Source: Callorhinchus milii
Lineage: Eukaryota
Assembly: GCF_018977255.1 (NCBI RefSeq)
Contig: NW_024704742.1
Coordinates: 78,804,001-78,868,000, forward strand
Length of the DNA stretch: 64,000 nt
Direction: 5' to 3'
Numbering within the stretch: the stretch's first letter is position 1; each line of letters opens with the position of its first letter. Below, in pieces: positions 1,879-64,000 of this stretch. A program made the position numbers and the translations under genes. The notes under the pieces are model-generated. The model ran no database searches and was not told the DNA's origin. It saw nothing but the letters and a program-made list of their open reading frames with translations.

Positions 1879-2082
1879 TTTGAGTTAATCTTGATTTCCC
1901 TGATATCACCTTTGAAAGATTCAGTGCCAGGGAATCGGTGGTCTGATCCAATCACACGTATGATGTCAGCACTGCCACCTCCAACAAAGGCAAAGAGTCC
2001 TTCCTGGGCCAGCCTAATGGTCGGAACAGCATACTCTTTACGGCTGGACACAGTAGCATGATCATTGACCTGCAAGATGGCA
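1879..2082 (-). CDS. LG gene exon ([18 protein letters not shown]...[10 protein letters not shown]...[14 protein letters not shown])
   Basis: tctttcag acceptor, AA|GTAAGT donor, phase 2-2; LQVND, FVGG and F.G.I.EI.IN motifs. Confidence 0.9.
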
Positions 2083-5000: not shown

Positions 5001-8000
5001 GAGGGTTTTGAGATGAGCAAGGGAGGGGGTTAGGCGAAGGGACTGTGGGATGGAGTTCGAAAGGGTGGGGGCAGAAAGGCTAAAGGCCTGACCGCTGATG
5101 GTGAGGCGTGCCGGGTGGGAGACGTGGAGCAGGCCACAACCTGCTGAGCGGAGGGAGTGGACAGGTTGATATTGGCTCAGCAGGTCACAGAGGTAGGAAG
5201 GAGCAAGGCCATGGAGGGCCATGAAAGTGAGGACAAGGGTTTGAATGCTATCCTCTGGGGATGGGGAGTCATTGGAGCCGGGCGAGGGTGGGAGTGATGG
5301 GGTCCCGGAGCCTGGTATGGGAGAGGACACGAGCCTCAGAATTCTGGACAATCTGCAGCCTGTGGAGGGAAGAGTTGGGAAGCCTGACAAGGAGAGAATT
5401 GGCATAGTTGAGCTGAGGCCCTCCTGTTGGCTCCAATCACAGCATTACCCTACATGGATGCACTCTACACCTCGCTGAGCCAATATGGAACCTTGGTGTC
5501 TGTTCAACCCTCAACTATCCTTCATTCCCCCACATCCGTGCCATGACCCGCTTCACCTTTCCCCACCTCTGAAACATCGCCCGGCTACCCCACTGTCTCA
5601 CACCGCAGGCCACCGAGACCCTCATCTGCATGTTCATAACATCCAGGCTCGACTACGGAAACTCCCTGCTTGTCAGCATCCCAACTCCCTCCTCAGACTG
5701 CAGATCATCCAGAACTCTGCAACCCGTGTCCTCTCCCGCACCAGGCTCTGTGACCTATCAACCCCATCTTCACCCAACTCCACTGGCTTCCCATCATACA
5801 GAGGATACAGTTAAAGATCCTGGTTCTCACCTTCAAAGCTCTTCACGGCCTCACTCCTCCCTATCTCTCTGACCTCCTAAACCCCTACCAACCTGTCTGT
5901 TCTCTCTGCTCAGCAGGCTCTGGCCTGCTTCACATCACCCACCTTGCGCGCCCCACCATTTGTGGGCAGACCATCAGCCTCTCTGCCCCACCCTCTGGAA
6001 CGCCATCCCACAGTCCCTCCACCTTGCCCCCTCACTTGCCTCTTTCAAGACCTGTCTCAAGACCCTCCTCTTTGACCGTGCTTTCGGTCACCCTTCTACC
6101 CCTACCCTTCCTGCCCTCCACCCCTCCTGAAGCCAACCACCAGCTTGGTTGCAGATCTCTGACTGTCCAGCGCCTTGGACATCCTCCTGATGTGAAAGGC
6201 GCAATACAAATTTAATTTGTTGTTGTTGTCTCAAGACACAGCTCTTTGACCAAGTTTTTGGTCATCTTTCCTCTATCTACGACCTTGACTCCCATCATCA
6301 GCTCGGGTACTCATCCAGCACTGTGAAGTGCTTTGCAATGTCTACCTGACATAAAGGTGCTACATGAATGTAAAGCATATTGCATTGTGTATTGTACATT
6401 TTGACATTCATCAAGTTGAGTGTTGCTATTGCTGGGAAAAAGGAACATTTTTCCACTTTGGGCAGCCAGTATGAGAAATAAAACATTCCACATTCAAGCA
6501 ATTTATGCAGCACAGCTAGATATAGTGTAAATCTTCTGCTTTCCTCCAATTAACAAACTATTACTCTAAACTTAAAAGAGCACTGCCTACCATAACTGCT
6601 CAGTATCACACTAAACAAGACAATTACCCGTTGGGAACTCACTCATCCATTTCATAGATTTTATTTCTGAATCACATAATCTTTGGTATTATCCCAACAA
6701 AATCCTCCAAAAAATCATTTTTAAACAAAAAATTACATTTAAGAATTTCAAACTGATAATCTAGTGAAGAAACTATTTTGGTGCTCTAGAGTCATTGACC
6801 AAAAGTTACAATCACTTCACTTCGATCTACTGTTCTGTCAACCTGAGTGTACTCACAATTTTCCTGTGAAATTCAGCAATATGGTGTGCCACTGTGCATC
6901 AGAGAGGCTTTCGTTTACAGTGTACAGGTATATCAGCTGGCCAGGGTCATCTTCAGTGGCATAAATTGCAAAGATGTTGCCACCAAATAGGGCTAGGTAA
7001 AGAAGTCCTTCCTAGAAAAAAAACAGTGTAGAAGTTACTGTATGAATGAACAACAACTTGCAACAATATAGCGCCCCTCACGCAGGGTAGTGTCCCAGAG
7101 CACTTGACAGTAGCGGAGCACGACACTGAGCTGGGAGGAGGGGGTGGTGACATAGGCACAGTTGAATAGGAAAGTCTTCAGGTGTGACCTGAAGATGGGG
7201 AAGGAAGGGACAAGGTAGAGAGACAGAGGATGGGTGTTCCAAAGTTTCGGGGTGTAGTGGCTGAAAGTGTGGTCACCACTGGTTGAACGGAGGGCACGGG
7301 GACATACAGAATGCCGGAGCCAGTCGTGCAGAAGCATCGGGTTGTGGATTGGGGCTAATCAGGTCGGAGAGGTAGGGAGGTGCCAGGGTATGAAGGGATT
7401 TGAAAACGAAAACAGATCAGGCCAAAGCAAGATTCGGGGAGTGGGGAGTCAATGGAGTGGAAAATAGAGCACCCATGAACAGAATTAATTGTATTAAATG
7501 TGAATCCATGATACAAAATCTGAATTTCAAAATGAAATATTATAGGGAGTACTTAATATGAGAGTATGGGGAGAAGGATCTGAGATGGTGTATTTGGAGC
7601 CTGGAAGGAAAAGTTGGAGGAACATTAATCATAACAGCATTAATAATGATAATGATGGTAAATTGCCAGGATCCATGGAATCATACCCAGCATCCACATT
7701 GCCTCCATTGGAGTAATTATATATAAAAGATTAATTCATAGAATCTACAGAATTGAAACAGGCCATTTGGCCAACTCATTTATGATTTATGCCAGTGTTT
7801 GCATGTCACATGAGCCTCCACTTAATCTAACTTTCTTCCTCCCCCAACCTCCCTTCATACCCTTCCAAGACATTCTTCGTTGACCACACATTCGGTCATC
7901 TTTCCCCTAACATCCCTATCCTCCTTAGCACACCACCACCCACCTCCAATCCCCTGCACCCTCCCAGTCCCCCTGGAATTCAACCCCCAGCTCGGATGCA

Positions 8001-11000
8001 AACCCTCAACTGCCCAGCACCTCGGGACATGCTTCTGACATGAAAGGTGGATTTAACTGTAAAATTTGTTGATGTTGATCTATTTATTCCCTTCTCTCTT
8101 ATGTAAGTATCTGCGTTTCCTCTTAAATTCATTGATGTTTTCTACTTCAACTGCAGCTTCCACAGGCAGTGTAGAAGAAAATTGGAGAAAATAAGAGTTT
8201 GGAAATCAAAATGATTGAATTAATATTGACAGGCAAATATATTTACATATTAAAGTGTAAACGTACATCCAGATAAAAATAATTATATGTTTTCTTACCG
8301 GTCTTTCCCTAGTGATAAAAAGCAGTCCAGACTCTTCCTTAGTCTTGAAGGTCAGTCCGAACGTTTCTATGATGTTCTGAGGCTGAGTTATGTTCAGTTG
8401 AATGTAGGAGTCTACAGCATAAAAGTGAATCCCTTCTTCCACCTGAGTTAAGAAATATTCATACTGAAGTTATATGGTGTTATCCTGGCTCAGTTGGTAG
8501 CACGCTTGCCCTTGAGTCAGAATGTTGTGGATTCAAACCCCACATGAGGATTTTGAGCTCATTGTCTATGCTGACACTTCAATGCATTTGCTGGGTGTGT
8601 GCTGCATTTTAGAGGAGCTGTCCTTTGACGAGATGTTGAACTAAGGACTTGTCCGCCTTTTCTGTTGGACATTAAGGAGCCATTGGGACAATTCGTGAAG
8701 AGAGGGGAGTTTCTCTGGTATCGTGGCTAATAATTCCCCCAAGTTAAATTGTTCATTCACTTCATGACTGTTTGTGGGATATTGCTGCATTCATCTACAA
8801 AATACATACTTTACAGTAAATCCGGTGAAGCTCTTTGAGATATCCTCTTGACGTGAAAGACGCTCTACCAAATGTAAGATTTTTAAAATATTTTCAATAC
8901 AACATTTTTATTAAAGAATGAATGAGTTGGTGAGCCGCACCTTCAGGGATGCTCCAGTTTCTGTTTCTGGTCTGCTGAGTTAGCCAAGTTTAGGCATATT
9001 GATCTCCGGCTGCTATAATTGACGTGAAAGCTTCAATTTTGGGAGAGGCAAATCAGCCACTTCTGATGAAAGTCTTAACAAGCTTTCAAATGACTGGAGG
9101 AACTTGGGCTTTTTTTCACTGAAACAAAGAATGTTGCAGGATGACCTGATAAAGGTCTTTAAAATTATGAGAGGTTTTGATAGTCAATAAGGAAAAATTA
9201 TTTCCACCGGTCAGTGAATCAGCATCAATTTAACCTAAGTTAATAAACGAGCAAATGGGGAGGTTAGGAGAAAGCTTTTCACACATACAGTAGTTAGGAT
9301 ATGGAATGCCTTGCCGGGGAGAGGTGGCCGAAGCAAAATCCATATTGGCTTTCAAGAGGGAATAAAAAGCATCAGCTATAGGGGATGTGAAAGGACAGGT
9401 CAGTAAGACTGCCCTTGATGGAGCTTCCACAGACACAAGAGATTGAATTTCTTTCTGCTGTGCCATAAAGAATTCCTTCATCAATCAATCAATCAATCAA
9501 TCAATCGATCGATCGATCGATCGATCGATCAACCAACCAACCAACCAATCAATCAATCCACGACTGTTTGTGGGACACTTCTGTGTGCAATTGGCTGTCT
9601 CGTTTTATTTCACTTCAGGCTGTTTGTGGAACTTGTTGCGCTTAAATTAGCTGCTGTGTTCACCCACAAAATATACACAGTCACATCACTTTATTGTATG
9701 TCCTGTGAAGCTCTTTGAGACATCTCATCAATATGATAATGCGCAGTATCAAACACAAGGATTATTATTACAGTATTATCAGGCGGATTCAGGTCATTTA
9801 TATTGGAGGGTTAAGTTAACCCTTTCCAGTTAATAGTTAACAGCTGGAAAGTGTTACTGAGAGGGATGCAGAGGTCAGGTTAAGAGATTTAACACAAGTT
9901 ATTAAAAAAATGGCTTCATGTTAAAATGGGAAGAGGATAGAATGGTTATTTTGGCAAGAGGAGATCAAATGGCCCGCATGTACTCTTCATTTATACTCTT
10001 CATTTGTACTCTTGTCTGGTCTTGATATACAGAGTGGTTGATATAGAGTAAAACTTCTTAAATTCTGCCTAACAATATGCATAGACCTCAATCTCTGAAG
10101 AACTTCTGACTGCAACATCATGGGATTTTTCATTTCTCACAAGTCAACTTGTCATTCCAGATTCCCAAATTTGTTGTGATTGAAGAGTAGCTTTGTGTTG
10201 TAAGGCTTTATTAACCGGTTCTACGTACTTTCAATGCAAATCAAAGAGCAAAACACATACTCTAGGTGCAGACAGTCTGGATCTTAAATACTACTATGAT
10301 TCTACATGGATTGCACTGATCAGCAATAAAATATAATGCATAAAGGTTAGTGGTCTGTATATCCTTTGTGATTATCCCACCTCTCCCAATGACTGCACTA
10401 CCTGTTTGATGAATACTACCCATTTGTGATTTATGTGTGGTTTATGTTTGCCTTTCCAGACAGTACATAAGTTTCACTGAAGCTTCAGAAAAATAAAATA
10501 GAAGGGAAATCACAAGTTACTTAATATTGTTTCTCTTGTTCACTTGATGCAATTCACTGTTTACTGAAAACAAATTAAAATTGGATTAATTTGTGCACTT
10601 GTAGCTGATGGATTGCAATTGTTATTTGACAGATAATTTTTAGCAGGAGACAAATAAGGATGACTTGCCACTTCTAATCCACCTGATAAATGACCAGCAC
10701 CTCCTTTCCTGTCTGCTCACAGTCTGAAAGCTGTGGCCAGGAATGCAAAGCATGAATGTTTGGGACAATCATATTAAGAATATTTCGAGATATATTTTTT
10801 TACCTTTTTTTGCCAAATATGACACACAATAACAAGACTTAATACAATTTAGCATTGTTTACTTTTTATATAATGTGAAGAGACTTTTGTGCATGCACAA
10901 GTGCTGTATAAGTGCTGTACAAAATTGTATTACAAGCTAAGACCTGGAATTTCAGGTGTACTGTATTTACCTAATACACTTAATTGTGTTTACCAGATCT

Positions 11001-14000: not shown

Positions 14001-17000
14001 AAAGATTCTGGTATAGCAATGGTCCATAGTACACAGCCCATGCTATAAGCGGACTTATGCTAAACTGGGGTACATTATAAGGTTGGCTTGTATGTGACTA
14101 TTGAGCAAGTGTGGGTATTTACTGAGGTTCCTTACCGTTTGGGGGCAGGTGTCAGGCGAGACATTCCTGTAGTCCGTGCTTTCTGATAACTCCCTTTTCC
14201 TCAGCTTACTCCCATTGCTGTGCAGGAATGTAGACACACAGCCTGAAAACCACCCAAGCCTGCGGGTAACAAACTTCCTTTAGATTTAATGAAACTAGTG
14301 GTTGTATTGGCAGTGAATCACATCCTGCTCCTTCTTCAGATGGAACAATTAAGACCACTCCTTCCAAGAAAACTAATTACATCTATTATGGGGTTGAGTT
14401 AGCAGCATTTGCAAATATTCATCTAATGGACAAACTATAAAAAGACAATTAACTGTAACCAGTGCAGACAATCAGGAAGGAGTCCCTGATAAAAAACGGA
14501 TGGAAATTAACCCCAGTTTCTTCACCCGCATATTTTTTGTATATTACAAAGCTGATTGCCAAAATTTTCACCTGAAATTGCGTGATGTGCTGCTAAATTC
14601 AATAGAGTGTGTGTAAAAATAAGCAGGATCACCAAGACAAGCAAGGCTGAGTCCATGACTTATTACAAAGCACTACTCAGTGACAGTGAGAATAGGAAAA
14701 ATGTTTTGCTGTTAAAACTTCCCTATTCATGTCAGTGGGTAGGACTTCATGACATCAAAGCAGTGAGATGGGGGGTGGGGAAGAATTCTACATACAAATG
14801 TCTCTTCTCAGACAGTCTGTAATCATAAAATGCAACAAGAAACATTGATTAAGAATTACCTTCAAATGTAAATATCTATTTGTGTACTTCCCATTAATTT
14901 TAACATGATTTCATCCTTGATACTATTCCTCACTGCCTGTCATTCACCTCAGATAGCCCATTTTTCATCAACTTGCCTTAACTAAAATTTTCATTTTATG
15001 CAAATACGTCTTTTCATTGCTTCAGGTTTTTAGTAAGATACAGTTCACATAAATTCTGTAGCTCAAAGAAGACAAAAAGAAGACAAAGGAGAGAATGTAG
15101 AGAATGTGTTAGTTGATGGGTTAAAGAGGTGATAGTGGAGTAAAATATAAGGGGGGTGTGGTGGGTTAAAACAAAACTGGGGAGAAGAGGTGTTAATAGT
15201 ATTCTTTGTCATCTTGTCCTGCCTCCCCCTCTCAATTTGTTCTTAAAAACCTCTCCCTCCCAACATGCCCCAGTTCTGACGAAGGGTCGTGGACCCGAAA
15301 CATTGACTCATTTTCCTTTCTCCGGAGATGCTGAGTTTTCCCAGCTCTCTCTGAGGTTGTACCTCAAATCGGGACTAGGGACTAGGTTGACACTTTAACT
15401 CATTGGTGAGGTTGTGCTGCATTATCAGAGGTGCCATCCTTTGGATGAGACATGGAACTGCTTATGCAGGTGGATGCTAAAGATTTCACGACCATATTTG
15501 AAAAAGAAGGGAGTTTCTCCTGGTGTCCTGATCAACAAATCCCCAGATAAAATTGGTTATTCATTTCATTATGTGACACTGCTGTGTGCAAATTGGCTGT
15601 TGTTTTTGCCCCAAGATATGCAGTTACTGTAATTCCTGGGAAGCATTTTGAGATATTTTGATGATGTGATTAGGTGCTATATGAAATGCAAAATCGTTAT
15701 TAATGTTATTAATGAAGTGTAAATTGAATAAGACATGAACCCTGAGAGCACACCTGTATCTAGCTTTGAAAGGACACATTTTAAGTGAGATGCTGCTCAT
15801 TGATATTCCTGCCATCACCCTGGTTCTTATTGTTGCAACAGCTTGCCAGAAGTCTCCCTAATCCACCTGCATGGCACAAGCACAGTTTTGATCGCTCTCT
15901 CCCCCAATTCGTCCACCTTTCCCCCTCCTTCCCCTCTTTTAGATCACACTCCAAGTGAAGGACATTATATAAAAGCAAGTTGTTGATCAATGTTCTGGGC
16001 CTGGAGGTCCCCTTGTCTATACCCTGTCCTGTAGCTCCTGTAGGTTAGAGCACTCACTTTGCAAGCGAGAGACCTGAGTTCAATTCCAGGCACAGGGCGA
16101 AACCTTGGGCAAGTTTCCTTATTCCACACGCCTAATAATAATCCCTCCAAAACCCAAAACAATAATAAATTGGTCATTTTCAATCCACGACTGTTTGTGG
16201 GACATTGCTGTGCGCAATTGGCTGCCGCGTTCGCCCACAAATACACAGTCAATTCACTTTACAGAGTGTTCTGTGAAGCGCTTTGGGACGTCCTCCCGAT
16301 GTGAAAAGTGCTATATCAAATGCAAGGATTATTATTTATTATTATTACCCATGAAGCCAAATTCCAACTCCCACTGGACCAACCTATTCATGCCCAGATT
16401 TTTACAGAGAGGAGGAATCTCGGCTGCCTCAACCTCATTATCTCTTTAAAATAATTTTTTTTGTTGCTCAGTGAACAAAGTGCCACTGGGTGGTGCCAAT
16501 GCACAAGAGAGAGAAGACAGATGCAAACTGCCTTCTGAGCTTTCTGATTTAATTGATACTCTGTGTGTTTGTGGGTGTTCATGGGGGTGGGGAGGGAGAA
16601 GAGAATGTCAAAAAATTAGTAGAGACAAACCACTCCAGGGAGAAACTGTAGGAAAATAACAGTCTCTCTAAGGGGAATCTTACACAGCTAAAAATGTATC
16701 TTGTGGAAGAAATATTCAGCTGGTTGGTAAAGCTACAGATTTTGGAAGTGTGGACTTATAATGGAATTTCCTGATGCCAGCAAGGTCTGTAACTTTTCTG
16801 ATCGGTGGAATTTAATCACCAGGGCACTAAAGGAATGCATGGCTTCAGCACATACTCTCCAGCACAGTTTGCCAAAGCTGTCAGAGAAATCAGGCATTTA
16901 GTCAATAGAATACTGTGGAAAGTGGATGTACAACTCCCCAGGACAGAGGAATTGATATACTAGATGCATAATCACTTAGATCACTGAATAAATCAAATTG

Positions 17001-20000
17001 AAAACTAAGTGAGCACTGAGACAAAGGCAATTACCAAGTGTATGTCATACACCCAACCTAGACCTATTTTCAGAGCTGAGTTCCATCAAATAAGACTTGA
17101 GGAGATTCAGTTACGGCAAGGAGCCCTGGTCAGAATATTGAGAAGTCTTGAGAAGAATGGTATTTTTGTTGAGGGAGAGGGAAATGCTCTCACATAAATC
17201 ACAGTTCTACTTTTCTGACTGGTTATAAAGGAGTATTGCACTGAACTTCACCTGGGGTGTGCTTTATAGCCACCTCATCGTGCATTAAAAAATAGTGCTT
17301 ATAATGGAATTTCCCAATTGTTGGCTTGTGCCCACAAGGTAACTTCTCAGATCAGTGGGATTTGATCTTCAGGGCACCACAAAAGGAATGGAATCCTTCA
17401 ACAGCAACAACTTGCATTTATATAGCGTCCCTCATGCAGGTTAGTGTCCCAGAGTGCATTCGGTCTAGATCAACAGGCCAGTGGTGATTTGATGATTCAA
17501 AAGTCCAATGTTTTACACAGGAATGAACATGGCAGCCAATTTGCACATAGCGATGACCCACAGACAGCCAAGAATTGAATGGCCAGGTTTATCTGGAGGA
17601 CTGATGGCTGGGACCCCAGAAGAAACTTGTTTCATTTTTCATTGTGATATCAATTCTCCACAATATCTTCCCTAACCTCCCTGCAATTACAACATCAACT
17701 GTCGATTTTCATTTGAGTCCAACATCCAGGCTTTGACCACTCAGTTGTTAATTACCCTATCTATAAAGAAATATTGTACATCCTGGTGTTCTGAAACTAC
17801 CCTTCACAACTCTGAAACTGTACCCTCTTGTTTTGTTGACCTGACGTATCCGAAAATATTATTATGTGCTGACTTTCTCAATACCATTTAGAATCATATA
17901 TGCAGGACAATTGTACCTTGAGTTTGCATTTTTTTCCAATGCTCCAAACAGAAATTCTCCAGCAGTCATTTCAATCCATTCTGATAGTTTCATGACTTGT
18001 GAGTCAACATCTGACCGAAGTAAATCTAGATCTAAAACATCCATCTGGAGAGAAGTGCTCTCTCTGTCCCATGTGATGGTGACCTGGAAGAGAGGCAAAT
18101 AACAACAACTACAACGACTTGCATTTCTATAGCACCTTTAACATCGGTAGGATGTCCCAAGATGTTGGACAATGAGAGGTTTGAATCCAAGTTAAGGGAT
18201 AGGATCAGAGAAGTGGAGGGCAAGAGGGAGTGGAGGAGGGAAGATGACTGTGTCGAAAAGGAAGATAATGATGATGAGGAGGAGGAGGAGTCAAGGGAGG
18301 AGGCCAGCCGAGGAGAAATTCTGGGATGGAGTTGCAGAGGGTGGGAGTAGAAAGATTGAAGGCCTGACTGCCAATACTGGAGCAGGCAGGATGGGGGACT
18401 TGAAGAGGCCATTGCCTGCAGAGCAGTGGTAGCGAACATTTTGGTGAAGTTTTAATAGGCCACAGAGATAGGGTGGAGCAAGACCATGGAAGGCTTCAAA
18501 GGTGAGGACAAGAATCTTGAACGTGATCCACTGGGGAATGGAGAGCCAGTGAAGCCAGATGAGGGTTGGGGGACCCGATTACAAACTTTAGTAAGTGAAT
18601 AACAATGAAACTGAATTAATTTTTACTTTTGTTGAATCACACATGAATTTGTTCGACTTCAATTTTCTTAGTTTCCCAAAACGTCCTGGCTGCACTGCAG
18701 GCTCCTTCAACTGGAACAGCAAGAGAGTAACTGCCAGGGTGTCTCCACCATTTCTGTAAATGGCCAGCAAGAGGTAAGCTTATAACACTGATCACTTCTG
18801 GATCTTTGTCCTGTTTTTCTTTAGGTCGGCTCGGTGCCTGACACAAGCCAATCAGCAAATCTATTGGGAATCCCATTCACGAATGGACATTTCTGCGTGG
18901 CTGGTATGGAGCATGCAGTCTCTCCATGTGAAGGGATGCATCACACTTACCTAATCCCTGAGAGTTTAAATGCAAAATACAAAAATAGGGAGATTTAGAG
19001 GATAAAATTGGATTATAAGTTTTGGGCTACAATAGTTTTCTTGAATACCCAAAATTGCTATGTTAGAAGCCCAACTGGTTATTGGTAAAAATTAACTGGA
19101 TTATTGGATGTAGACCTTTGTTGTGGTTCTGCCGTCTTCAATTCTGGCAATATAAATGAGCTTTGCTTTGATACATTTGCATTTGATTTAGCACCCATAA
19201 TGTCTCAAAGCTCTTTATAATATTTTTTTAAATTGTAGTGATTGTTTATTGATAGGCAAAATCTGCAACCAATTTGCACAGATTCGAGATTATGAGCCAA
19301 AAGTCCCAAAATGGGTTTGAACCCACAACCTTTGGACCCACAGGTAAGGGTGCTATCAACTGAGCCAGGCTGACTCCTATATGATGTGATTACAACAACA
19401 ACAACAACAAGATTCCATTTATAAAGCGCCTTTCACGTCAGGAGGACGTCCCAAGGCGCTGCACAGTTGGGTCATGACCCGAGCAGGGGGGAAATGGTCA
19501 GGGTGAGGGGAGGGAAGGGAGGGAGCGAGGAGGGGGGAAATGGTCAGGGTGAGGGAAGGGAGGGAGCAAGGAGGGGAAATGGTCAGGGTGAGGGGAGGGA
19601 AGGGAGGGAGCGAGGAGGGGGAAGAGAGTCGAGAGGGGAGCTGAAGGCTCGGTCAAAGAGAAAGGTTTTGAGACCGGCCTTGAAGGAGGAAAGGGAGGAA
19701 GCGGCGAAGGCACTGGGGGATGGAGTTCCAGAGCCTGGGGGCTGAGAGGCTGAAGGCCCGACCACCGATGGTAGGGCGGTTGGGGCGGGGGACGTGGAGC
19801 AGACCAGAGCCAGAGGAACGGAGGGTACGGGCAGGTAGGTAGGGGGATAGTAGGTTGGAGAGGTAGGAGGGAGCAAGGCCGTGAATGGCCTTGTAGGTGA
19901 GGATGAGGATCTTGAAATCAATCCTCTGGGGGATGGGGAGCCAGTGGAGGCGAGCGAGGGTGGGAGTGATGTGGTCGCGAAGCCTGGTGCGGGACAGTAC

Positions 20001-44000: not shown

Positions 44001-47000
44001 CGACCTTCTGATGAGATATTAAACCGAGGTACCGTCTGCCTCTTCAAGTCGACGTTAAAGATCCCATGGTGCTGCTCAAAAAGAGAAGGGAGTTTCTTCC
44101 AGTGTCCTGGCCCACAATCCCCCAAATAAAATTGGTTGTTTAGTTCATGGCTGTTTGTTGGACATTGCTGCATTTGCCCCAAAGACACACAGTCACTGCA
44201 ATTTACAATATATCATGTGAAGCACATTATGACATCCTCTAGATATGAAAGGTGATATGCCAAATATAAGGATTATTATTATTAATAAGTACTGCATGCC
44301 AATCTAAAACCGTTGTATCACCCACAAAGCATGTGTAGCCCTCCACTTCAACAACAACAACAAAATTGCATTGATAATAGCGTCTTTCACATTGGCTTTT
44401 TTTTCACCTGTTATTCTGAGCAGAATCGCTGCTCCTTATGTCTTTAGCCCTCCATTCATAGTCTGTCTGGAGTATTGCATCTGCTTTACATCCTCTCCCA
44501 AAAGTTAAGACAGTGCTATGTTGGCAGAAGCCTTTCTTAGTTTCACACATTTTAGTCACATTTTCTAGGCAGTCGATGAAGCTGTCCTGAATTAAGGAAC
44601 AGTGTTAAGTAATGAATGGATAATGTATTTATGATAATTGCTTTTCCTCCACAAAAATAATTTGAAGCCTACAACACAATACAATTTTCAACACAGTGTT
44701 ATATAACGCCATTCAGGGCTTCACACAGCTAAGATCTATCAACTTTATTTCAAGGTCAGTCACTAACCAGGAGATGTTGAAGGTTCTTCCACATGACTTG
44801 TTATGAAATGACAGCAGCTTTGTTTTTCTTGTGGACTCTGAGGCCTCCAAATGTCGAATGGTATTCCATTCAGCGATATATTATGAAGGCATCCCGTGAA
44901 ATTTCTTGTACTTAACATGGCATGATTCAGCTGAAGAACAAGAACAGGAATGTATTGATAAAATATCAAATAGCCTTTTAATTTTGGCTTTGCTGTCACC
45001 AATTATCTGCATTCCTCTTGTGAAAATGCTGACTCCTGCTTTGTGAAATTTTCCACTCAACCAACTACTTATTCATCAAATGCAAGCATAGGCAGTGAGC
45101 ATTGTGCATGAACTGTTGGGAACATTACATTTTCGACCAATATAATAACGTGATATCAGCTTGGCTGAGTCAGAAGGTTGTGGGTTCGAGCCCCACATCG
45201 GGACTTGGGATCACATAGTCTAAGATGACACTCCAATGCAGTGCTGTGTGGGGGGGGGGGGTGGTGTTACATTGTTGGAGGTGCCATCATGTTAAATTGA
45301 GGTCCCTTCTGCCTGTTCAGGTGGATGTTAAAGATTCCATGACACTGTTCAAAAACTGAAGGGAATTTTTCTCGGTGTCCTAGTCAACAATCCCGAAAAT
45401 AAAAATTGGTCATTCAGTTCATGACTATTTGTGGAAATGCTGTGCACAATTGTGCTGCTGTGTTTGCCTAAAATACAGTCACTCCATTTCACAATAAAGC
45501 CTGTGAAGCACTTTGAGAAGTCCTTCTGAAGAGATAATGTGCTATACCAAATCCAATTATTATTATTAGGGTTATTATAATACTGTCCAGTAACCAGGAT
45601 TAGTAGTTTAGCTCATTTTCTCTGCTCTAGCCCAAGGACACTGAGGCCAATTCTAATGCCGGGTTGGCTTTGTGACTGAGATGAACAACCTAAGCAGTAA
45701 CAAACCTAATCAAATTAGGTTGGTGTGGAATCCTGCAGCTCAGTGGTTAGAGCACTCGGCTCGCAAGCGAGAGACCTGAGTTTGATTCCGGGCAGGACAA
45801 AATGTTGGGCAGGTTTCCTTACTCCACATGAAGTAGGAACCAGTTGTTAGTCGATTGGTGGATTGCTTTTCCGGAGGTAATAATTCCTTAAAAAAAAATC
45901 GCTCACTTCAATCCATAACTGTTTGTGGGACACTGCTGTGTGCAATTGGCTGCCGCTTTTCTCCCACAAAATATACAGTCAATTCACTTTACCATATATT
46001 CTGTGAAACACTTTGTGACGTCTCGAAGACGTGATAAGGCGCTATATCAAATGAAAGGATTATTATTATTATTCATTTGACACTTGGACCCCTGATCAGT
46101 ATGTACAAATTTGGCACTGAACAATGCACATCAGAGAGGTATCACTCAATCTTTTTTGACAAATGATTGTATTTTCAATTGTTTTGAATTTCACTTTGAG
46201 ATGTTTTGATGTGATAAAAGTGTGATCACTCCTATCATCACTTTCAGTTATTCAATGTCTAGAAAATAAAGTCCATAGGATCTGTCACAGTACTCAATTC
46301 TGTGCTTTTGTGTTTGTATGTATCTGTGTGTGTGTCTCTGCTTCTCTAACATGTACCTACCTGCATCGGAGCTTGCTTCTCACATTGCTGGTTTAAATTG
46401 TGAACCTCATTATAATGCACAGATCTAAAATTTTACTTCTGGATGTGACCCTGAAGCATATAAAGAGGCCTGAAGTTATCCAAGGTTCAGATAAGCAGAT
46501 TGGAGTGTACTTAATACACTTTTCACTCAAATTGCTATTCTAAAACTGACACAAACTGTGTTCAGTGATGCTTTGGCACCATATTTCTACAAATTTTATT
46601 GAAAGTATAATAACATTTTATCTGACAAAATTGTTATCTTATTGTCTGCTATGATTTACTTTGGTTCAATCAGTTCTTTTGGCACTATCAAAGAGTTATG
46701 CATAAATTTTAATGTTACATAGATTAGGTTCAGCCTCTGTCCCATTCATGTCCTCAGTGTTCTGGGAAAATGTATTACAGAATATTTCAATTCAACTTTT
46801 CAGATTTTCTTAAGATTTCTAATGGGCTTTTGACCACCACTTAACAGTCTTCCACTGCTCAGTGGCCAGAGGTTAGTTGCAAAAGCTTGTCACTGACATA
46901 TGCATTCAGTGTTTAGGCATTGCAGGTCACTGGTAATGAATGATAAGTAGACAGACTGTGGCTTCTCTTGAGATCAATGCCTGCAGTTCCTGATTCTGAA

Positions 47001-50000
47001 TTGAAGTGCTCACTCTTCTTTTGTACAGGATATCTCTGGACTAATGGCGGTAGTTGTCATCCACTGAACCCTCGAAGTCTGCTGGCATTCTAACTGTTAT
47101 GTCACCTTCCCACACGATTCTCTGTTTCTCTTCTGCGATTTTGCACTTCCACGACCAAACAGCTCATAAATATTCATACATATCATGGTTTTCTCTTTCC
47201 TAAATGTAAAATAGTGTGGGGGAAACGGCAGGGGAGTGGATCTAAACAGATGCCTCTTACAGAGAGTCAATATGATACAAAGGGAGTGGAACTAAAGAGA
47301 TATATCTTACAGAGAGTCGTTACGGATACAATGGACTGAATTGCCTCCTTCTGTGCTGAGAAATAAGCTTATGATTTCTAAGCATCCAGGAAAGATTGGG
47401 AGAGACAGAAAGATTGAGAGACAGGGAGAGGGGGAGAGAGATGGGGGGAAGGGAGAGAGAGGGGGAAGAAAGGGGGATTTAGAGGGATTGAGAGAGGGGG
47501 TGAGAGAGAAAGAGAGAGAGAGAGAGGATGAGGGTAGGGAGAGGGGAGGAAGGAGGAATGGATTGAGAGAGTGGGAGGGAGAGGGGCGAGAGAGACTGTG
47601 AGAGACGGGGAGAGAAAGAGTGATTGAGAGCGAGGGGGAGAAAGTAATTGAGAGGGGAAGTGAGCAAGAGAGAGATTGAGAGCGAGCGTGACAGGGGAGA
47701 GAGTTGTTAGAGAGAGAGATTGTGAGAGGGAGGAAGAGAGAGAGGAGCGTGTGTCTGTATGTGAGAGTGTGAGTGAGAGGGGAGAGAGAAAGGGAGAGTG
47801 GGAGAGAGAGATTGTGTGAGAGGGGGAGAAGAAGAGTGATTGAGAGAGCAATTGAGAAGAGAGATTGAGAGGGAGTGTGAGAGGGGAGAGAGAGTTGTAA
47901 GAGAGTGTGAGAGGGAGTAAGATAGTGAGGGAGATAGAGAGAGCAGAGAGTGATCTAGAGAGTGTGAGATGGGAGAGAGTGTGCGTGAGAGAGAAGTGTG
48001 CGTGAGAGAGAAGTGTGCGTGAGAGAGAAAAGGGAGAATGATTGAGAGAGAGAGAAAGAGAGAGAGAGAAACAAAAAGAGTGAGAGAGAGGAAGAAGTGA
48101 GGAACAAGGACAGACACCGAGTGACGTGATGTGCCATGCAGTTTCCTCACAGAAAACTCCCTTTCCCCAGTGAAAAATCTCTCTATGTCCTTCAGTCAAA
48201 TAAATGCATGCTTAAATTAATGATTCCATTAATAAGACGTCCAGCACTTGATGTGACCTGGATCATTAATCGTTACCTTCCTTTCCTAAGCTTGGTTAAA
48301 AGATTAAGTGTGATAGGACTCTTGGCTCTCACTTGTGGATTCAAGCCCCTTGTCAGGATGTTGAACCCATAATGTAGCCTGACACTCCAATACAGGACTG
48401 GGATTTAATTATATTGTGGAAGTCCTTTGTATAAAACATAAAAATCAAGATCTGTCTGCCTGTTAAGGTGGATATTAAATATCCCATGGTACTACAGTAT
48501 TTCAAAAGAGTAGGGAGTTTCTCCCAGTGTCCTAGCCCCAAATGAAACTGATCACTTACTTTATGGCTGTTTGTGGGACATTGTTGTGAGTAAATTGGTT
48601 GCTGTGTTAGTCTACATAATACAGTCACTATACTCTATGGTGAATCTTGTAAAGTGCTTTAAGAAGTCCACCTGATATGAAATGCAAGGATTGATGCTAT
48701 AATCATTGGTTGCAGAGAATGATTACCTCAATATCCATTAGTCTAGCTCCAGTAGCTGTTGGGGCGATACATGCCTTCAGGGCACAGTTGTTTGTAGTGT
48801 AACAAACTCTGTATTGTGTTGAACAATGTACATTACTAATTAATAAATGGATATTTGTATACTAGTTTTCAGAACATAGCAATTCATCACATACAGACAA
48901 GCGCAGCACTTGTCCATATACTGCTCATTACCTTCATATTTCCTATGATTCCTCCTATGTAAACGGTGGAGGTTGGGACCAGCAGGAGGTATTTGTCTAA
49001 TGTATTTTGGCTTCCGAATGCTGAATGCGATCTCTGTGACACCATTTCTGTTACTTTGATTGAACCTTCATGTCCAAACCTGCAATTTCAATCATAATGA
49101 TATGAGAATGGCTTCAGACTTAAAATAGTCAAAAATAATATATGGAGTTAAATAACAGTTTTTTTTTTAACCCCGCATGTTGATGAATTTCTTCTAAGGT
49201 TTTTATGGTGATACTGTAGATTTTGTTTTAAGTCTGCAGAAAAAAGTTTTTGGAATTTCACTAAGATTTTAAGATGAGTTGTGTTAATTTACTCTCCAAA
49301 TTCCATCAATGACTCTACAAATGCATGGAATTGTCAGTTTGGTTTAGATAATCTAAGCAAGGTGATGGGCCTCCGCATGTGTCAGACACCTGACTGACCC
49401 TAAAAAAAGATGGAATTTTGGGCCCAAACTCGTGCTGAATCTGTTGCAATAGACTGACTAACCACTAGGGGCAGTGACTCACTGCTTCTCCCCAAGAGTG
49501 ACTCCAATTTTTACTCTGATATGCAGCCATCCAGGGCTTTACAACTTTCAACAACAAAATTACATTTGTATAGCGCCTTTCACGTCAGGAGGACGTCCCA
49601 AAGAGCAGGGGAAGGACTCAAGTATTTTTTTCTCTCTTGCCCATAGAGTGTTAAGTAAACGATTGCATTGTTTTAATACTTATTTTAGCATGTGGAGACC
49701 CTGACCTCAATTCGGGACCTCAAAGAGGTGTATAATATTTTAAAGGGGATTGACAAAGTGAAACCAGAACAATACTCTAGGATGCAATAAGTCAGCAGAA
49801 CAAGAGGACACAAAGTTAATGTGGCAAAGGGCAGTTTCGGGACAGATACCATGATGTTTTTTTTATTTAGACAGTAATTAATAACTGGAACACATTGCCA
49901 GGAAAACTAAATATATTTAAATTTAGAGTAAATAATCTCACCATTCTATGAACAATGAGAAGTATTTCTCACAAGATGTATTGGACAGTCTAGAGCTGGA

Positions 50001-50247
50001 CGTGTACACTTCATTGTACATTGCGCAAATGGCATTGCGCATTCCTGCTTTTAAGGAGACTGTCGATTATGAGTTGTCTTGGTGACTTTATGCTTATTCT
50101 GAGAGATACTTTACCTGTTAGCATTGATCTGATACCACTTCTCTTGCTGAAGTCTAACCAGGCTGATTACTGTGACGACAAGATTAGTCATTCCAAATCT
50201 GAAGTGCAGCAACCCATCGATCAGCTCCAGTCCCAAGAAACCTTTCA
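1879..50247 (-). CDS. Partial multi-exon gene encoding a laminin-alpha-like protein with at least three tandem laminin-G domains; join(50115-50247,48932-49079,44768-44930,21123-21382,17917-18083,14136-14259,8299-8442,6857-7011,1879-2082)
   Basis: Nine exons with canonical AG/GT sites and matching phases (1-2,2-0,0-1,1-0,0-2,2-0,0-0,0-2,2-2) give 1498 nt without a stop. LG motifs recur three times (F.T...GLL, L.L..G, W[HY].[IV], [YF][IV]GG, F.G[CD]). Several N-X-S/T sequons fit an extracellular protein. Confidence 0.9.
2790..3975 (+). mobile_element. Decayed R4/Dong-like non-LTR retrotransposon 3' part (RT thumb, CCHC knuckle, restriction-like endonuclease), interrupted by a SINE tail at about 3440-3543
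   Basis: Broken frames read [64 protein letters not shown]...[21 protein letters not shown]. Confidence 0.82.
4745..6228 (+). mobile_element. L2 LINE 3' part with an opposite-strand L2 nested at about 4890-5411
   Basis: RT C-terminal sequence stops at ...CAGTTGAATGTCAACAA (about 4890) and resumes at CTGAGGCCCTCCTG (about 5413); [12 protein letters not shown] motif; (TTG)n tail. Confidence 0.85.
4890..5411 (-). mobile_element. 5'-truncated L2 fragment nested in the plus-strand L2
   Basis: [16 protein letters not shown]...AFS.SAP.L.NS.P...LKTLLF translation. Confidence 0.85.
6857..7011 (-). CDS. LG gene exon ([51 protein letters not shown])
   Basis: T-rich ctag acceptor, TT|GTGAGT donor, phase 0-2; L.L.GG and SD.QWHTI motifs; absent from the ORF track. 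Confidence 0.9.
7047..7460 (-). mobile_element. Old L2 3' fragment
   Basis: [13 protein letters not shown]...[11 protein letters not shown] translation; L2-type tail. Confidence 0.75.
8299..8442 (-). CDS. LG gene exon, start of third LG domain ([48 protein letters not shown])
   Basis: aactcag acceptor, CCG|GTAAGA donor, phase 0-0; F...SY..L and FKT...SGLLF motifs. Confidence 0.9.
8483..8880 (+). mobile_element. Older tRNA-derived Deu-type SINE (related copies at about 11030-11420, 12845-13085, 26533-26930, 43862-44285, 45157-45570, 48340-48690 on +; 24262-24620, 33858-34125, 40945-41300 on -)
   Basis: TGGCTCAGTTGGTAG A box, B-box-like GTGGATTCAAACCC, CTGTTTGTGGGA body and L2-like tail; diverged. 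Confidence 0.75.
9095..9475 (+). mobile_element. CR1 LINE 3' fragment
   Basis: [29 protein letters not shown] and F...VVRIWNALP match the CR1 ORF2 C-terminus. Confidence 0.8.
9479..9557. repeat. Compound tetranucleotide microsatellite (TCAA)n(TCGA)n(CCAA)n(TCAA)n
   Basis: Directly visible, immediately after the CR1 3' end. Confidence 0.95.
10583..10694. promoter_or_regulatory. Candidate intronic enhancer with Pbx-Hox and Meis-type motifs
   Basis: TGATGGATTG (10606), TGACAG (10627), TGATAAATGA (10684) and GGATTA/TAATCC in non-repetitive sequence; motif evidence only. Confidence 0.3.
13085..13600 (-). mobile_element. Old L2 3' fragment
   Basis: L2 tail and degenerate F...LKTFLF-type region. 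Confidence 0.65.
14136..14259 (-). CDS. LG gene exon, end of second LG domain ([42 protein letters not shown])
   Basis: cccgcag acceptor, ACG|GTAAGG donor, phase 2-0; FSGC...C disulfide pattern. Confidence 0.82.
15205..15350 (+). mobile_element. Penelope-type terminal-repeat remnant containing a minimal hammerhead-like core (15272-15308)
   Basis: AGTT-CTGACGA-A-GGGTC-gtg-GACCC-GAAAC-ATT-GACT followed by CCTTTCTCCGGAGATGCTG, which is shared with the 33586-33785 element. Confidence 0.65.
16026..16347 (+). mobile_element. Young tRNA-derived Deu-type SINE
   Basis: Nearly identical to the reverse complement of 1407-1726. Confidence 0.92.
17917..18083 (-). CDS. LG gene exon ([15 protein letters not shown]...[17 protein letters not shown])
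   Basis: cttccag acceptor, AG|GTACAA donor, phase 0-2; continues WHQ|VTI directly. Confidence 0.85.
18100..18575 (-). mobile_element. L2 3' fragment whose tail ends just upstream of the 18083 acceptor
   Basis: L2 tail GGGACATCCTACCGATGTTAAAGGTGCTATAG...(TTG)n; [14 protein letters not shown] region. Confidence 0.78.
19392..20920 (-). mobile_element. Young 5'-truncated L2 LINE with uninterrupted reverse transcriptase C-terminal ORF (about 19653-20921)
   Basis: [54 protein letters not shown] motifs with no stops; CpG-rich; (TTG)n tail. Confidence 0.97.
21123..21382 (-). CDS. LG gene exon, first half of second LG domain ([12 protein letters not shown]...[11 protein letters not shown]...LEEGHL...VNLGHWHQ)
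   Basis: tgttccag acceptor, CAG|GTATGG donor, phase 1-0; F.G.GY, F.T....G+LL and WH motifs. Confidence 0.92.
22564..22886 (-). mobile_element. Young full-length tRNA-derived Deu-type SINE
   Basis: Intact A and B boxes, body and (ATT)n tail. Confidence 0.93.
24724..25094 (+). mobile_element. Young L2 3' fragment, same subfamily as 19392-20920
   Basis: Almost identical to the reverse complement of 19392-19847 apart from 3'UTR tandem-unit number. Confidence 0.95.
25506..25883 (+). mobile_element. tRNA-derived SINE, longer variant with an extra internal segment (related: 45724-46072)
   Basis: Same head and tail plus AAGTAGGAACC.GTTGTTAG..GATTGG.GGATTGCTTT insert. Confidence 0.85.
27475..28378 (-). 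mobile_element. L2 3' fragment
   Basis: [11 protein letters not shown]...[10 protein letters not shown]...[15 protein letters not shown] translation. Confidence 0.92.
32870..33277 (-). mobile_element. L2 3' fragment
   Basis: [16 protein letters not shown] translation and L2 tail. Confidence 0.88.
33586..33785. mobile_element. Inverted-repeat (foldback) Penelope-type element, arms about 95-100 bp
   Basis: ACACTCAGCAGGTCAGGCAGCATCTATGGAGAAAGGAA pairs with TTCCTTTCTCCGTAGATGTTGCCTGACCTGCTGAGTGT; each arm holds a decayed hammerhead-like core. Confidence 0.8.
34128..34650 (+). mobile_element. Degenerate L2 RT fragment
   Basis: [21 protein letters not shown] and [20 protein letters not shown] remnants. 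Confidence 0.8.
36847..37160 (+). mobile_element. tRNA-derived Deu-type SINE inserted in an L2 3' remnant
   Basis: Full head, body and tail; L2 tail resumes at about 37170-37240. Confidence 0.9.
38842..39137 (-). mobile_element. Young SINE, truncated inside the tRNA head
   Basis: Body and tail match 22564-22886; ends at a duplicated B-box segment. Confidence 0.9.
39193..40230. repeat. 156-bp inverted repeat pair (39193-39348 / 40075-40230)
   Basis: Arms align as reverse complements with about six mismatches by eye. Confidence 0.92.
39347..39665 (+). mobile_element. Young tRNA-derived SINE abutting the left inverted-repeat arm
   Basis: Full head, body and tail. Confidence 0.9.
41055..41203. 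mobile_element. hAT (Charlie-like) MITE, 149 bp, inserted in an older SINE
   Basis: Imperfect TIRs CAGTGTTGGTCAACCT / AGGTTAGCCACCACTC; 8-bp TSD GTATAGAC / GTGTAGAC. Confidence 0.8.
43264..43622 (-). mobile_element. Young SINE with a triplicated 30-bp 3' terminus
   Basis: ATAATAATAATAATAATCCTTGCATTTGAT x3 at 43264-43353, then the normal SINE body. Confidence 0.92.
43639..43830 (+). repeat. Unclassified old dispersed repeat, second copy at about 50783-50980
   Basis: Shared blocks GCTTGGGGACCCCAG, CAGCTAAA, AGCTTGCCATTG, CATTAGGG, TTGCAGG in the same order. Confidence 0.7.
44768..44930 (-). CDS. LG gene exon, end of first LG domain plus linker ([54 protein letters not shown])
   Basis: ttcttcag acceptor, G|GTTAGT donor, phase 0-1; FTGC...LNG...IW...C motif. 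Confidence 0.9.
47388..48110. repeat. About 720-bp degenerate GA-rich polypurine tract
   Basis: Directly visible; it explains the S/L/H-rich spurious ORFs. Confidence 0.95.
48932..49079 (-). CDS. LG gene exon ([50 protein letters not shown])
   Basis: ttgcag acceptor, AAG|GTAATG donor, phase 2-0; R.G..GSI.V and VYIGG motifs. Confidence 0.9.
49715..49930 (+). mobile_element. CR1-like LINE 3' remnant (a related remnant lies at about 54945-55170)
   Basis: [15 protein letters not shown]...TRGH...VINNWNTLP; second copy KYFFTKRVINEWNKLP. Confidence 0.7.
50115..50247 (-). CDS. LG gene exon, middle of first LG domain ([43 protein letters not shown])
   Basis: cttcag acceptor, AG|GTAAAG donor, phase 1-2; matches the FL.+E+..G...F...W..I.a.R pattern of laminin-alpha LG1. 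Confidence 0.9.
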
Positions 50248-50534
50248 CTGAAGATATTATACAAATAACAATGTGTTCACATTTAATGCATTGCTAGAAA
50301 AAGTACACAGACTCATTTGTTTCTTAATAAACTCCGAGGGCTGCAAGCATTTGCAATGGGATTTTTACCATGTGAGCTATTGTGGACTGGAAGGAATGGC
50401 GGAAGCTGAAATAATGTTTCCTTGCTTCCAGTATCAATGCCCTTGATTTCCTATTAATTTACACGGAATTGCATAAAATGATAGTGCACAAAAACAGGCT
50501 ATTGTGGCCCAACCAGTCTTTGCTGGTGTTTGTA

Positions 50535-57047: not shown

Positions 57048-57077
57048 NNNNNNNNNNNNNNNNNNNNNNNNNNNNNN
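57048..57077. other. Assembly gap (30 N)
   Basis: Run of n characters. Confidence 1.
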
Positions 57078-57148
57078 TCACGGGTTAGTACTCACAACGG
57101 TTACTGATATTCAGCGGCGTGTATTTTAAGGTCCGCCAGGTCGTTTTG

Positions 57149-63100: not shown

Positions 63101-64000
63101 GGGACATTCCTTTATAGAACTTGGCTGCTGCATTCACCCACAAACCACACATTCACGTGATAACATATCCCATGAAAGGCTTTGGGATGTTGTCCTGATG
63201 TGAAAGGCACTATATCAAATGCAAGAATTATATCTTATTATTTATTTATATCAAATATAATTAATAAGCATTTAATATATGTAAGCTTTTAGAGATCAGG
63301 TGGGCTAAGCCCAAAGCCTTTAGGCTAATATGGTAAAAGTTATATTTTTGGCTCAGGGGAGCATGGATTTCAGTCTGCTTAGTCAGATAAATGCCGAGAA
63401 AGAAAAATGTTCATAGAAATCAACTAGCCTTGATGCACAACCTAAAATTTACAGAATAAAATCACATATTTTTCAAGGCTATAAAATAGCAGTGCTTGGA
63501 CCCTGAGTGGGTTCACCACTTACTTAAATAGGATACCACTTGGTAGTGCTTCTTAAGCATTTCTTAAATAGGTTAAGGAATGCTTTGAGGAATACCACAA
63601 AATTTACCTTTTTGTTCTTTAACGACAGCAAGAATTGTAACATTAAGATGTGCTTCCATTCTCTGCTCTTTTTCTTAAAATGTTTTGCTTGTGAGCCTTC
63701 AATATAGCAAATATGAACAGTCTGTTTCTTTCACTCTGTATTTACTATTGAGGATAGAATCCTGCCCTCTTAACAACAACAACAAAATTACATTTGCATA
63801 GAAACTTTCACTTCGGTAAGACATCCCAAGGTGCTGGACAGACAGAGTTAAGGACCCGAGCTAAGGGTCAGGGTGGGAGGTGGGGGGAAGGCATCGGGGG
63901 AAAGCAGGGAGATCAAAAGCACGGTCGAAGAGGAGGGTCTTGAGGTGGGTCTTGAAGGTGGCGAGGGAGGGGGTGAGACGGAGGGACTACGGGATGGAGT
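57149..64000 (+). repeat. Near-identical direct duplicate of 20894-27702, including SINE copies (58824-59146, 61805-62180) and L2 copies (60975-61392, 63773-64000)
   Basis: Initial offset 36255; colinear throughout; differences are mostly homopolymer indels and scattered substitutions. Confidence 0.97.
57378..57637 (-). CDS. Duplicate copy of the 21123-21382 LG exon, probably allelic or an assembly artefact
   Basis: Identical translation and splice sites, but out of order relative to the exon chain and next to a gap. Confidence 0.5.

Follow-up and report, generated by a model that had tools for sequence, protein, structure and literature searches.

A laminin alpha-type LG array in Callorhinchus milii that probably belongs to a sixth alpha chain of an old, otherwise invertebrate clade

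Nine exons in a 64,000-nt stretch of the genome of the chimaera Callorhinchus milii (the window) encode LG1 to LG3 of what is probably a sixth laminin alpha chain from a third alpha clade, and the chain is likely encoded by one gene of 57 exons and 1.01 Mb with an inferred 721-kb intron. It would be a secreted protein that trimerises via a coiled coil, is anchored to cells and, in all likelihood, does not use the standard node for polymerisation. The accepted number of laminin alpha chains in vertebrates is five, which derive from two ancient types.

The exons are read on the minus strand from position 50247 to 1879 of the window:

50115 to 50247, minus strand: model exon 41, LG1, phase 1-2
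48932 to 49079, minus strand: model exon 42, LG1, phase 2-0
44768 to 44930, minus strand: model exon 43, end of LG1, phase 0-1
21123 to 21382, minus strand: model exon 44, start of LG2, phase 1-0; Pfam Laminin_G_2, 28.7 bits
17917 to 18083, minus strand: model exon 45, LG2, phase 0-2; weak donor, based on splice sites and phase only
14136 to 14259, minus strand: model exon 46, end of LG2, phase 2-0; wholly contained in the C10 processed copy
8299 to 8442, minus strand: model exon 47, start of LG3, phase 0-0; both junctions in the C10 processed copy
6857 to 7011, minus strand: model exon 48, LG3, phase 0-2; in the RefSeq model (P0001) and the C10 processed copy
1879 to 2082, minus strand: model exon 49, LG3, phase 2-2; first 14 nt in the C10 processed copy

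All nine have AG/GT ends and matching phases, and their 1,498 nt yield 498 full codons with no stop and no EGF spacers. This confirms the initial annotation, which had described nine phase-consistent exons with three LG domains and had read them as a laminin alpha array; two refinements are the extent of the array, with LG1 starting one exon upstream of the window and LG4 and LG5 following downstream, and a repeat of part of the window, described below. Five tandem LG domains thus stand behind a coiled coil, and Pfam likewise marks five LG stretches in the orthologues. The domains are divergent: a single window exon passed the Pfam Laminin_G_2 cut-off (21123-21380), and four others were sub-threshold. 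The spliced peptide reached at most 166 bits against the fetched proteins, its own RefSeq piece left out, and 20 shuffles gave at most 32.3. The best solved-structure matches were the LG domains of alpha2 and alpha1 (PDB 1dyk, 5ik4, 5mc9; E about 2e-14). The single-sequence fold of P0001 had a mean pLDDT of 31.7.

Splicing was observed at four junctions. One of them is upstream of the window: a contig of run X1 departs from the genomic sequence at the acceptor of exon 40 and resumes 21.7 kb away at the exon 39 donor, which is a unique site, while run X2 reads straight through. This evidence consists of a single contig with a depth of 7.6 from a run whose RNA nature is a guess. Runs X9 and X10 left exon 40 uncovered and were uninformative. 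The other three junctions (46/47, 47/48 and 48/49) are spanned by the processed copy on C10, which is gap-free over 440 nt and identical at 425 of the 440 positions. Three of the eight window junctions are supported in this way. The other five, like all front-half junctions and the inclusion of the MAM domain described below, are based on splice sites and homology only. A sequencing-run search with 48900-50300 had no RNA run among the matches listed (share of run X1, 0.18).

The complete model comprises 3,172 codons without an internal stop, in the order signal peptide, LN, an arm of LE, LF and L4 domains, a coiled coil interrupted by a MAM domain, and five LG domains. All 56 introns are GT-AG as modelled, but the exon ends, of which seven were set manually, were picked to fit GT-AG and phase, and these properties are therefore partly built into the model. 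Outside the window, it contains the following features:

C1:79801195-79642344, minus strand: exons 1-38, front half
C1:79749701-79749593, minus strand: exon 23, carrying a 1-nt frameshift
C1:79701915-79672993, minus strand: MAM exons
C1:78920850-79642343, minus strand: inferred intron of 721,494 bp between exons 38 and 39
C1:79614019-79615887, antisense to the gene: LINGO ORF inside the inferred intron
C1:78920849-78920707, minus strand: exon 39, end of the coil
C1:78899007-78898833, minus strand: exon 40, start of LG1
C1:78802612-78789518, minus strand: exons 50-57, end of LG3, linker, LG4, LG5 and stop

The coiled coil that was to be sought in the upstream exons is present directly ahead of LG1, as indicated by the contig that joins exons 39 and 40 and by the alignment of the coil end with orthologues. 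The coil alone gave no phmmer match, and a clade profile matches exon 36 at 3e-9. The signal peptide, the short arm of LN and LE domains, the CxxC start of the coil and the LG array follow one another in order along the locus. RefSeq annotates XP_007890249.2 as 'usherin-like', a model that covers only the last 563 aa and whose first exon differs from the one that the processed copy joins to exon 48. Usherin has a fibronectin type III array, a membrane anchor and an LG pair in mid-chain. Although LG domains occur in both proteins, identity with usherin was rejected, as the present chain has no fibronectin repeats and its coiled coil is followed by five terminal LG domains in tandem, with a stop after LG5. 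A locus on C3 at 88.35-88.45 Mb with LN plus LG domains would fit usherin.

The assignment to a third clade, which was defined in this analysis from database proteins, is based on both ends of the gene. Among 1.84 billion representatives, only six non-self matches had E values below 1e-30 (2e-67 to 5e-40; the following match had 2e-28), and these are laminin-like proteins of a crinoid, amphioxus (two), a nemertean, a hemichordate and a priapulid. Third-clade proteins include Anneissia XP_033120753.1, Ptychodera XP_070542660.1, Branchiostoma XP_078587501.1 and XP_066271223.1, Lineus XP_064620727.1, Priapulus XP_014662548.1 and Owenia CAH1795786.1, all automatically named 'laminin subunit alpha-like'; identities to the RefSeq LG piece are 27-31%. 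An unrooted LG tree (42 rows) has three groups, and the query falls within the third (SH-aLRT 100), as it does in an unrooted mixture-model tree of 32 rows (100), in line with the phylogeny check suggested initially. Within the clade, it stands apart from the deuterostome members in the LG trees. For the other end, an unrooted tree of LN plus LE (21 rows) joins the gene with the third clade at 100/100. The whole chain is collinear with the clade and scores 1,435 bits to P0007 vs. 844 for the best canonical chain. Sequence comparison of both ends thus shows orthology to an old invertebrate clade, and the earlier suggestions of a fast-evolving or lineage-restricted alpha paralogue, or of a new multi-LG matrix protein, had to be abandoned. 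That the array is none of LAMA1 to LAMA5 proved correct, because five separate LAMA loci exist in the same genome, of which two group with vertebrate alpha1/2 and three with vertebrate alpha3/4/5. The window peptide shares 21-22% identity with the chimaera's own alpha1/2 chains, and BLAST matches between LAMA1/2 ORFs and the region were repeats. Word-based searches with P0001 among proteins of 309-986 and 987-2,815 aa retrieved no vertebrate orthologue, and atlas searches retrieved generic LG and LN clusters only.

The domains themselves are in agreement with this placement. As modelled, the query shares with the third clade the compact order LN-LE-LF-LE-L4-LE-coil-LG x5, clade-specific LN and LG4 motifs, an LN without PLENGE and an LG4 without the alpha1/2 aspartate. 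In the alignment, PLENGE or a one-letter variant is present in all five canonical rows and missing from the query and from four of four clade rows. The PLENGE loop of LN is described as required for polymerisation in one source (PMC8388930), and the loop found in the polymerising chains alpha1, 2, 3B and 5 is missing here. In LG4 of the query, both aspartate positions are replaced, which we take to be calcium ligands. Vertebrate alpha1 and alpha2 also have LG1-3 in tandem, a linker and LG4-5, but they possess two L4 domains, no LF, a PLENGE-type loop and a calcium-binding LG4. The query has one L4, vs. two Laminin_B stretches found by Pfam in the alpha1/2 row P0011, and does not group with these chains. 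The order LN, LE, LF, LE, one L4, LE, coiled coil and five LG is also that of vertebrate alpha3B and alpha5, and the invertebrate alpha3/5 rows P0049 and P0032 were the best non-clade short-arm matches. However, the alpha3/5 chains are longer (about 3,500-3,700 aa in full-length rows), have kept the PLENGE-type loop and form a separate clade; the query does not group with alpha3, alpha4 or alpha5 in the LG trees.

A peculiarity of the query is its MAM domain, a four-exon cassette (170 aa, phase 1-1, between exons 30 and 35) inside the coiled coil, inserted where invertebrate orthologues have a short loop. Three aligned clade proteins show this loop instead, and Pfam found no MAM in nine scanned proteins (eight of the third clade and one alpha1/2). 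A multi-MAM gene at C1:86.4 Mb is only 21-39% alike, so no donor has been shown. Laminin beta chains carry the L-beta knob, a globular insert that interrupts the coiled coil, and the likeness ends there, because here a MAM domain resides in an alpha chain. The chain would be secreted and could trimerise via its coil with beta- and gamma-type chains, possibly including a beta/gamma-like chain on C8. Anchorage might come from LG1-3 via integrins and from LG4-5 via sulfated glycans, and dystroglycan would be bound weakly. The MAM domain would protrude from the coil as a side knob and could supply lateral contacts of which the altered LN is incapable, and polymerisation by the standard node is likely to be absent in the putative trimer.

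The two halves of the model probably form one gene, as judged from phase, spacing and orthologues. Invertebrate proteins of 2,900-3,100 aa each match both halves, in order and on the same strand; exon 38 has a good donor and ends in phase 1, and exon 39 has a good acceptor, starts in phase 1 and begins in mid-coil. The spacing of anchor motifs over the presumed exon 38-39 splice is 232 aa, compared to 235, 235, 236 and 237 in the four orthologues measured. Alternatively, the ancestral gene might have split into an LG-less chain from LN to the coiled coil with MAM, ending near LINGO, and a separate transcript for the coil end and LG1-5. This would explain why the intron is 16 times as long as the next longest one modelled (44.6 kb, itself inflated by a duplication) and why RefSeq models the LG end alone, and no read or contig was found to bridge the junction. 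Reading through the exon 38 donor leads to a stop two codons on, so that an LG-less short form is possible. Nevertheless, the matching order, phase and spacing make a split unlikely, and a non-exhaustive look revealed no signal-peptide exon for the LG half. In a screen of 819 low-repeat ORFs of at least 70 aa in the intron (662 single-copy, the top 45 viewed by eye), the LINGO ORF was the only one that did not look transposon-like or non-coding, and short exons could escape such a screen. Neither exon 39 nor the exon 23 region turned up a second time in the genome. About as improbable as a split is it that the gene is a young, still transcribed pseudogene of the third clade disabled by the 1-nt deletion in the otherwise regular LE motif of exon 23; searches found no orthologue in other vertebrates, and relatives may be able to do without the gene. 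Yet this deletion is the single lesion in a coding sequence of 9.5 kb, it lies in a short one-base run of an assembly in which duplicated stretches of 35 kb differ by 61 gap openings, and it is presumably an assembly error.

The duplication in question is a repeat of about 36 kb that involves the window:

57048 to 57077, no strand: assembly gap of 30 N, exactly between two duplicate copies, the sole multi-N gap in the 1.166 Mb read
57149 to 64000, on to C1:78896544, no strand: second duplicate copy, repeating 20894-57047

The copies differ by 0.50% overall, with 61 gap openings over 35 kb, vs. none of 704 exonic positions (Poisson p 0.029), an invariance that also speaks against a pseudogene; exon 44, for example, recurs identically at 57637-57378 on the minus strand. 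The assembly contains both copies, and a genuine duplication with two identical LG1/LG2 exon blocks used singly is conceivable, but improbable. The gap lies exactly at the join, the four identical exons total 704 nt and would shift the frame if both blocks were used, and similar equal-score pairs occur elsewhere in the assembly. A false (haplotype) duplication is therefore likely. Very improbable is a fast-evolving vertebrate LAMA1/2 or LAMA3/4/5 paralogue that was drawn to invertebrate chains by long-branch attraction. The end branch of the query is long (1.31-1.67), though it resembles those of some other clade members, the tree tool warns of long-branch joins, alpha2 and alpha1 lead the structure matches, and L4 gives nearly the same score with an alpha1/2 row (43 bits) as with a clade row (40 bits). 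LN (136 vs. 43 bits), LG (369 vs. 156 bits) and LF all score highest to the third clade, the clade motifs are present, and AU tests rejected joining the query to vertebrate alpha1/2 (p 2e-65) or alpha3/4/5 (p 5e-6), so that this explanation is already largely refuted. In addition, the gene is located in a LINGO/HMG-box region, with SLC44 and HMG20-like genes as neighbours, away from the other LAMA loci.

The preferred reading, a third-clade alpha chain, corrects the 'usherin-like' RefSeq model and flags a likely false duplication. A second odd laminin chain with beta/gamma-like architecture exists on C8, which the LN tree left unplaced. As a tentative proposal, chimaeras might keep a whole second ancient laminin system lost in other vertebrates, composed of the third-type alpha chain, with a LINGO-hosting 1-Mb gene and a newly gained MAM knob that replaces LN-based polymerisation, and of the C8 chain, a type stated in print as absent from vertebrates. 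If true, this would be a basement membrane built by a non-standard cross-link. The gene offers a test of whether a trimeric coil can carry a MAM domain, and its LN without the loop for the standard lattice makes it a natural test of a full-length, likely non-polymerising laminin. A third alpha type that is shared with amphioxus and seven invertebrate phyla is probably alive in a jawed vertebrate; its presence in the chimaera implies that it existed in the jawed-vertebrate ancestor and was then lost, or is unannotated, elsewhere. In one vertebrate lineage, then, an ancient part of the basement-membrane toolkit has likely persisted.

The nine exons predicted on the minus strand between window positions 50247 and 1879 have AG/GT ends and matching phases, and their 1,498 nt comprise 498 codons with 0 stops, which confirms the initial annotation. 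In genome coordinates, the window spans G000:C1:78804001-78868000. The peptide contains LG2 and most of LG1 and of LG3, and LG4 and LG5 follow downstream of the window, within 14.5 kb and before a stop, so the proposed laminin-alpha-like LG tandem holds. Compared with fetched proteins, its own RefSeq piece excluded, the peptide scored at most 166 bits, versus a maximum of 32.3 for 20 shuffles. The Callorhinchus milii RefSeq protein encoded at this locus, XP_007890249.2 (P0001), is named usherin-like and omits 47 upstream exons of our 57-exon gene model.

Family searches identified five other laminin alpha loci in the genome:

C2:115.8 Mb, laminin alpha
C2:117.9-118.0 Mb, laminin alpha
C3:30.5-30.7 Mb, laminin alpha
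C3:35.0 Mb, laminin alpha
C18:14.9-15.0 Mb, laminin alpha

Their LG regions are 42-59% alike to database chains, among them named vertebrate alpha1, alpha2, and alpha4. The window peptide is only 19-26% alike to these five separate loci, and thus it is indeed not assignable to LAMA1-5. When used as a query against 1.84 billion representatives, P0001 had 263 matches; of the 149 non-self ones listed, 20 were traced to a name. Six non-self matches fall below 1e-30, all laminin-like: two from amphioxus and one each from a crinoid, a nemertean, a hemichordate, and a priapulid. For an LG tree, 135 proteins of at least 700 aa were screened, 98 were kept as long LG arrays, and 36 hand-picked ones were used together with six chimaera rows. 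The tree has three groups, alpha1/2 (support 99), alpha3/4/5 (99), and a third (100), which unites the query gene with 12 rows. Of these, 11 are named invertebrates, annelids, snails, and a bryozoan among them; the remaining one has no name. On 32 rows, a mixture-model quick tree agrees, and the LN domain and first LE repeats of the front half of the gene also fall into the third clade (100/100). AU tests rejected a grouping of the query with vertebrate alpha1/2 (p 2e-65) and with vertebrate alpha3/4/5 (p 5e-6). Together, these trees and tests contradict the earlier suggestion of a fast-evolving laminin-alpha paralogue, and the gene almost certainly belongs to an ancient third-type laminin alpha clade. 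The LG tree gives it a long branch, the tool warns about its pairing with the priapulid row, and its position among the clade members is tentative. No further vertebrate member was found in the P0001 database search, in which a relative more than 50% identical could be hidden inside P0001's own cluster, or in word-based searches (proteins up to 2,815 aa), and the Callorhinchus milii genome yielded no paralogue.

A weak L4 match 900 kb upstream pointed to the front half of a laminin, encoded on the same strand at C1:79.80-79.64 Mb. Single invertebrate proteins match the front half and the LG half in order. A third-clade profile had 48 minus-strand matches, 47 of them within the two halves, and two weak ones on the plus strand. 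Built from the full 1.166 Mb that covers both halves, the DNA between them, and their surroundings, the model has 57 exons, 3,172 aa, and 1,011,678 bp, with seven exons or exon ends set by hand:

G000:C1:79801195-79642344, minus strand, exons 1-38
G000:C1:78920849-78920707, minus strand, exon 39
G000:C1:78899007-78898833, minus strand, exon 40
window, 50247 to 1879, minus strand, exons 41-49
G000:C1:78802612-78789518, minus strand, exons 50-57

The end of exon 38 and the start of exon 39 are both in phase 1, and the two anchor motifs around this point are spaced by 232 aa, compared to 235-237 aa in 4/4 orthologues measured, therefore no exon seems to be missing. It is very likely that both halves form one gene, in which exons 38 and 39 would join across an intron of 721,494 bp. 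A coiled coil and an LN/LE arm modelled upstream in the same chain speak, given this inferred link, against a new free multi-LG matrix protein.

A contig of run X1 (guessed RNA, n=1, depth 7.6) contains exon 40 up to the acceptor and then the donor end of exon 39, a sequence unique in the genome and 21.7 kb from exon 40. Hence the coiled coil sought upstream was found, its end (exon 39) being spliced to exon 40 in this contig. Run X2 is unspliced and continuous through this intron. Three of the eight window junctions are backed by a processed copy:

G000:C10:20838074-20838513, 440 nt, spliced exons 46, 47, and 48 plus 14 nt of exon 49

It matches the spliced exons at 425/440 positions (97%) without gaps, with 7 silent and 8 changed codons and no stop, and it does not support the N-terminal 13-aa piece of P0001. 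It adjoins a SINE-like repeat. Its existence implies that the message was produced in the germ line. Of the junction support that had been called for, the X1 contig supplies the 39/40 junction, upstream of the window, and the copy supplies three junctions within the window; the other five are modelled. The gene is real and spliced, and with high probability it is functional.

Exon 23 is one base short within an LE repeat, which was bridged by X in the model. Behind a 30-N gap (57048-57077), the sole such gap in the 1.166 Mb, comes a second copy of window 20894-57047; the two copies share 35,467 aligned bases with 179 differing sites and 61 gap openings, and the four repeated exons have 0/704 differences. 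This 36-kb tandem duplication (window 20894-64000) is likely an artefact in which two haplotypes were placed in tandem. The first 70 or so bases behind the gap (57078-57148) are not part of the aligned block. Pairs of equal score occur elsewhere in the assembly, at C1:138.03-138.04, C2:117.997-118.003, and C2:124.97-125.00 Mb. One ORF overlaps the start of the block:

window 19656-21077, minus strand, 474-codon reverse transcriptase-like ORF, presumably LINE-type

Two further genes lie within or beside the laminin gene:

G000:C1:79614019-79615887, plus strand, LINGO-type single-exon LRR-Ig ORF of 623 codons, antisense in the inferred giant intron
G000:C1:78.76-78.78 Mb, plus strand, HMG20-like gene, tail-to-tail with the laminin gene, one of three paralogues in the genome

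Two 63% paralogues of the LRR-Ig ORF lie on C21 and C22, where the HMG-box neighbour has paralogues as well. Pfam gave families only; we take the ORF to be LINGO2 and the neighbours to be HMG20-like and SLC44A1.

The query has other residues in place of both alpha2 LG4 aspartates that differ (D to A) between PDB 1dyk and 1okq, and to which we ascribe a calcium role. At the first of these positions, 6/6 aligned third-clade members have a non-aspartate (glutamate in one). Passages of the literature describe that chains without the LG4 calcium site bind dystroglycan weakly (PMC10300086), that laminins are three chains joined via a coiled coil and polymerise through LN domains, that LG1-3 and the coil end bind integrins and LG4 binds dystroglycan via calcium (PMC11260871), and that polymerisation requires the PLENGE residues of the alpha LN (PMC8388930). 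This loop is present in 5/5 canonical rows and absent in the query and 4/4 aligned third-clade members. No third-clade protein scanned reached 0.001 with Pfam Laminin_N; their LN domains were found by a profile built from canonical LNs. A MAM domain, encoded by four exons, interrupts the coil near its midpoint, with flanks of about 297 and 285 aa. Three aligned orthologues carry a short non-coil loop there. The MAM domain is flanked by phase 1 introns, and therefore its exons are skippable.

A second unusual laminin chain is a possible partner:

G000:C8:19039229-19069975, plus strand, candidate chain with LN, LE, LF-like, LE, L4, LE, and coiled coil

It is known from domain matches. Its coil ends with a cysteine and then a stop, no LG was seen at the locus, and the LN tree assigned its LN to no group. 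We assume that this domain order is that expected of a "beta/gamma-like" laminin chain. PMC3516229 describes such a chain as absent from ecdysozoans, urochordates, and vertebrates. Two related LN genes, joined 97/97 in the LN tree, belong to none of its alpha, gamma, and netrin-1/G groups and are probably netrin-4-like:

G000:C5:25.80 Mb, LN gene
C12:15.91 Mb, LN gene
scaffold C67, duplicate of one of the two LN genes

The main laminin survey is that of Fahey and Degnan (2012), which may already show the invertebrate clade. Literature searches, with passages of PMC12549020, PMC4582122, and PMC5338690 among the text covered, gave no paper on a third alpha clade, a sixth vertebrate alpha, or a laminin with a MAM domain. 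From its sequence, the query chain would form a secreted, cell-anchored trimer, which is predicted to stay out of the standard laminin lattice, and the MAM knob may serve lateral contacts. An ancient third-type laminin alpha gene is present in a vertebrate.
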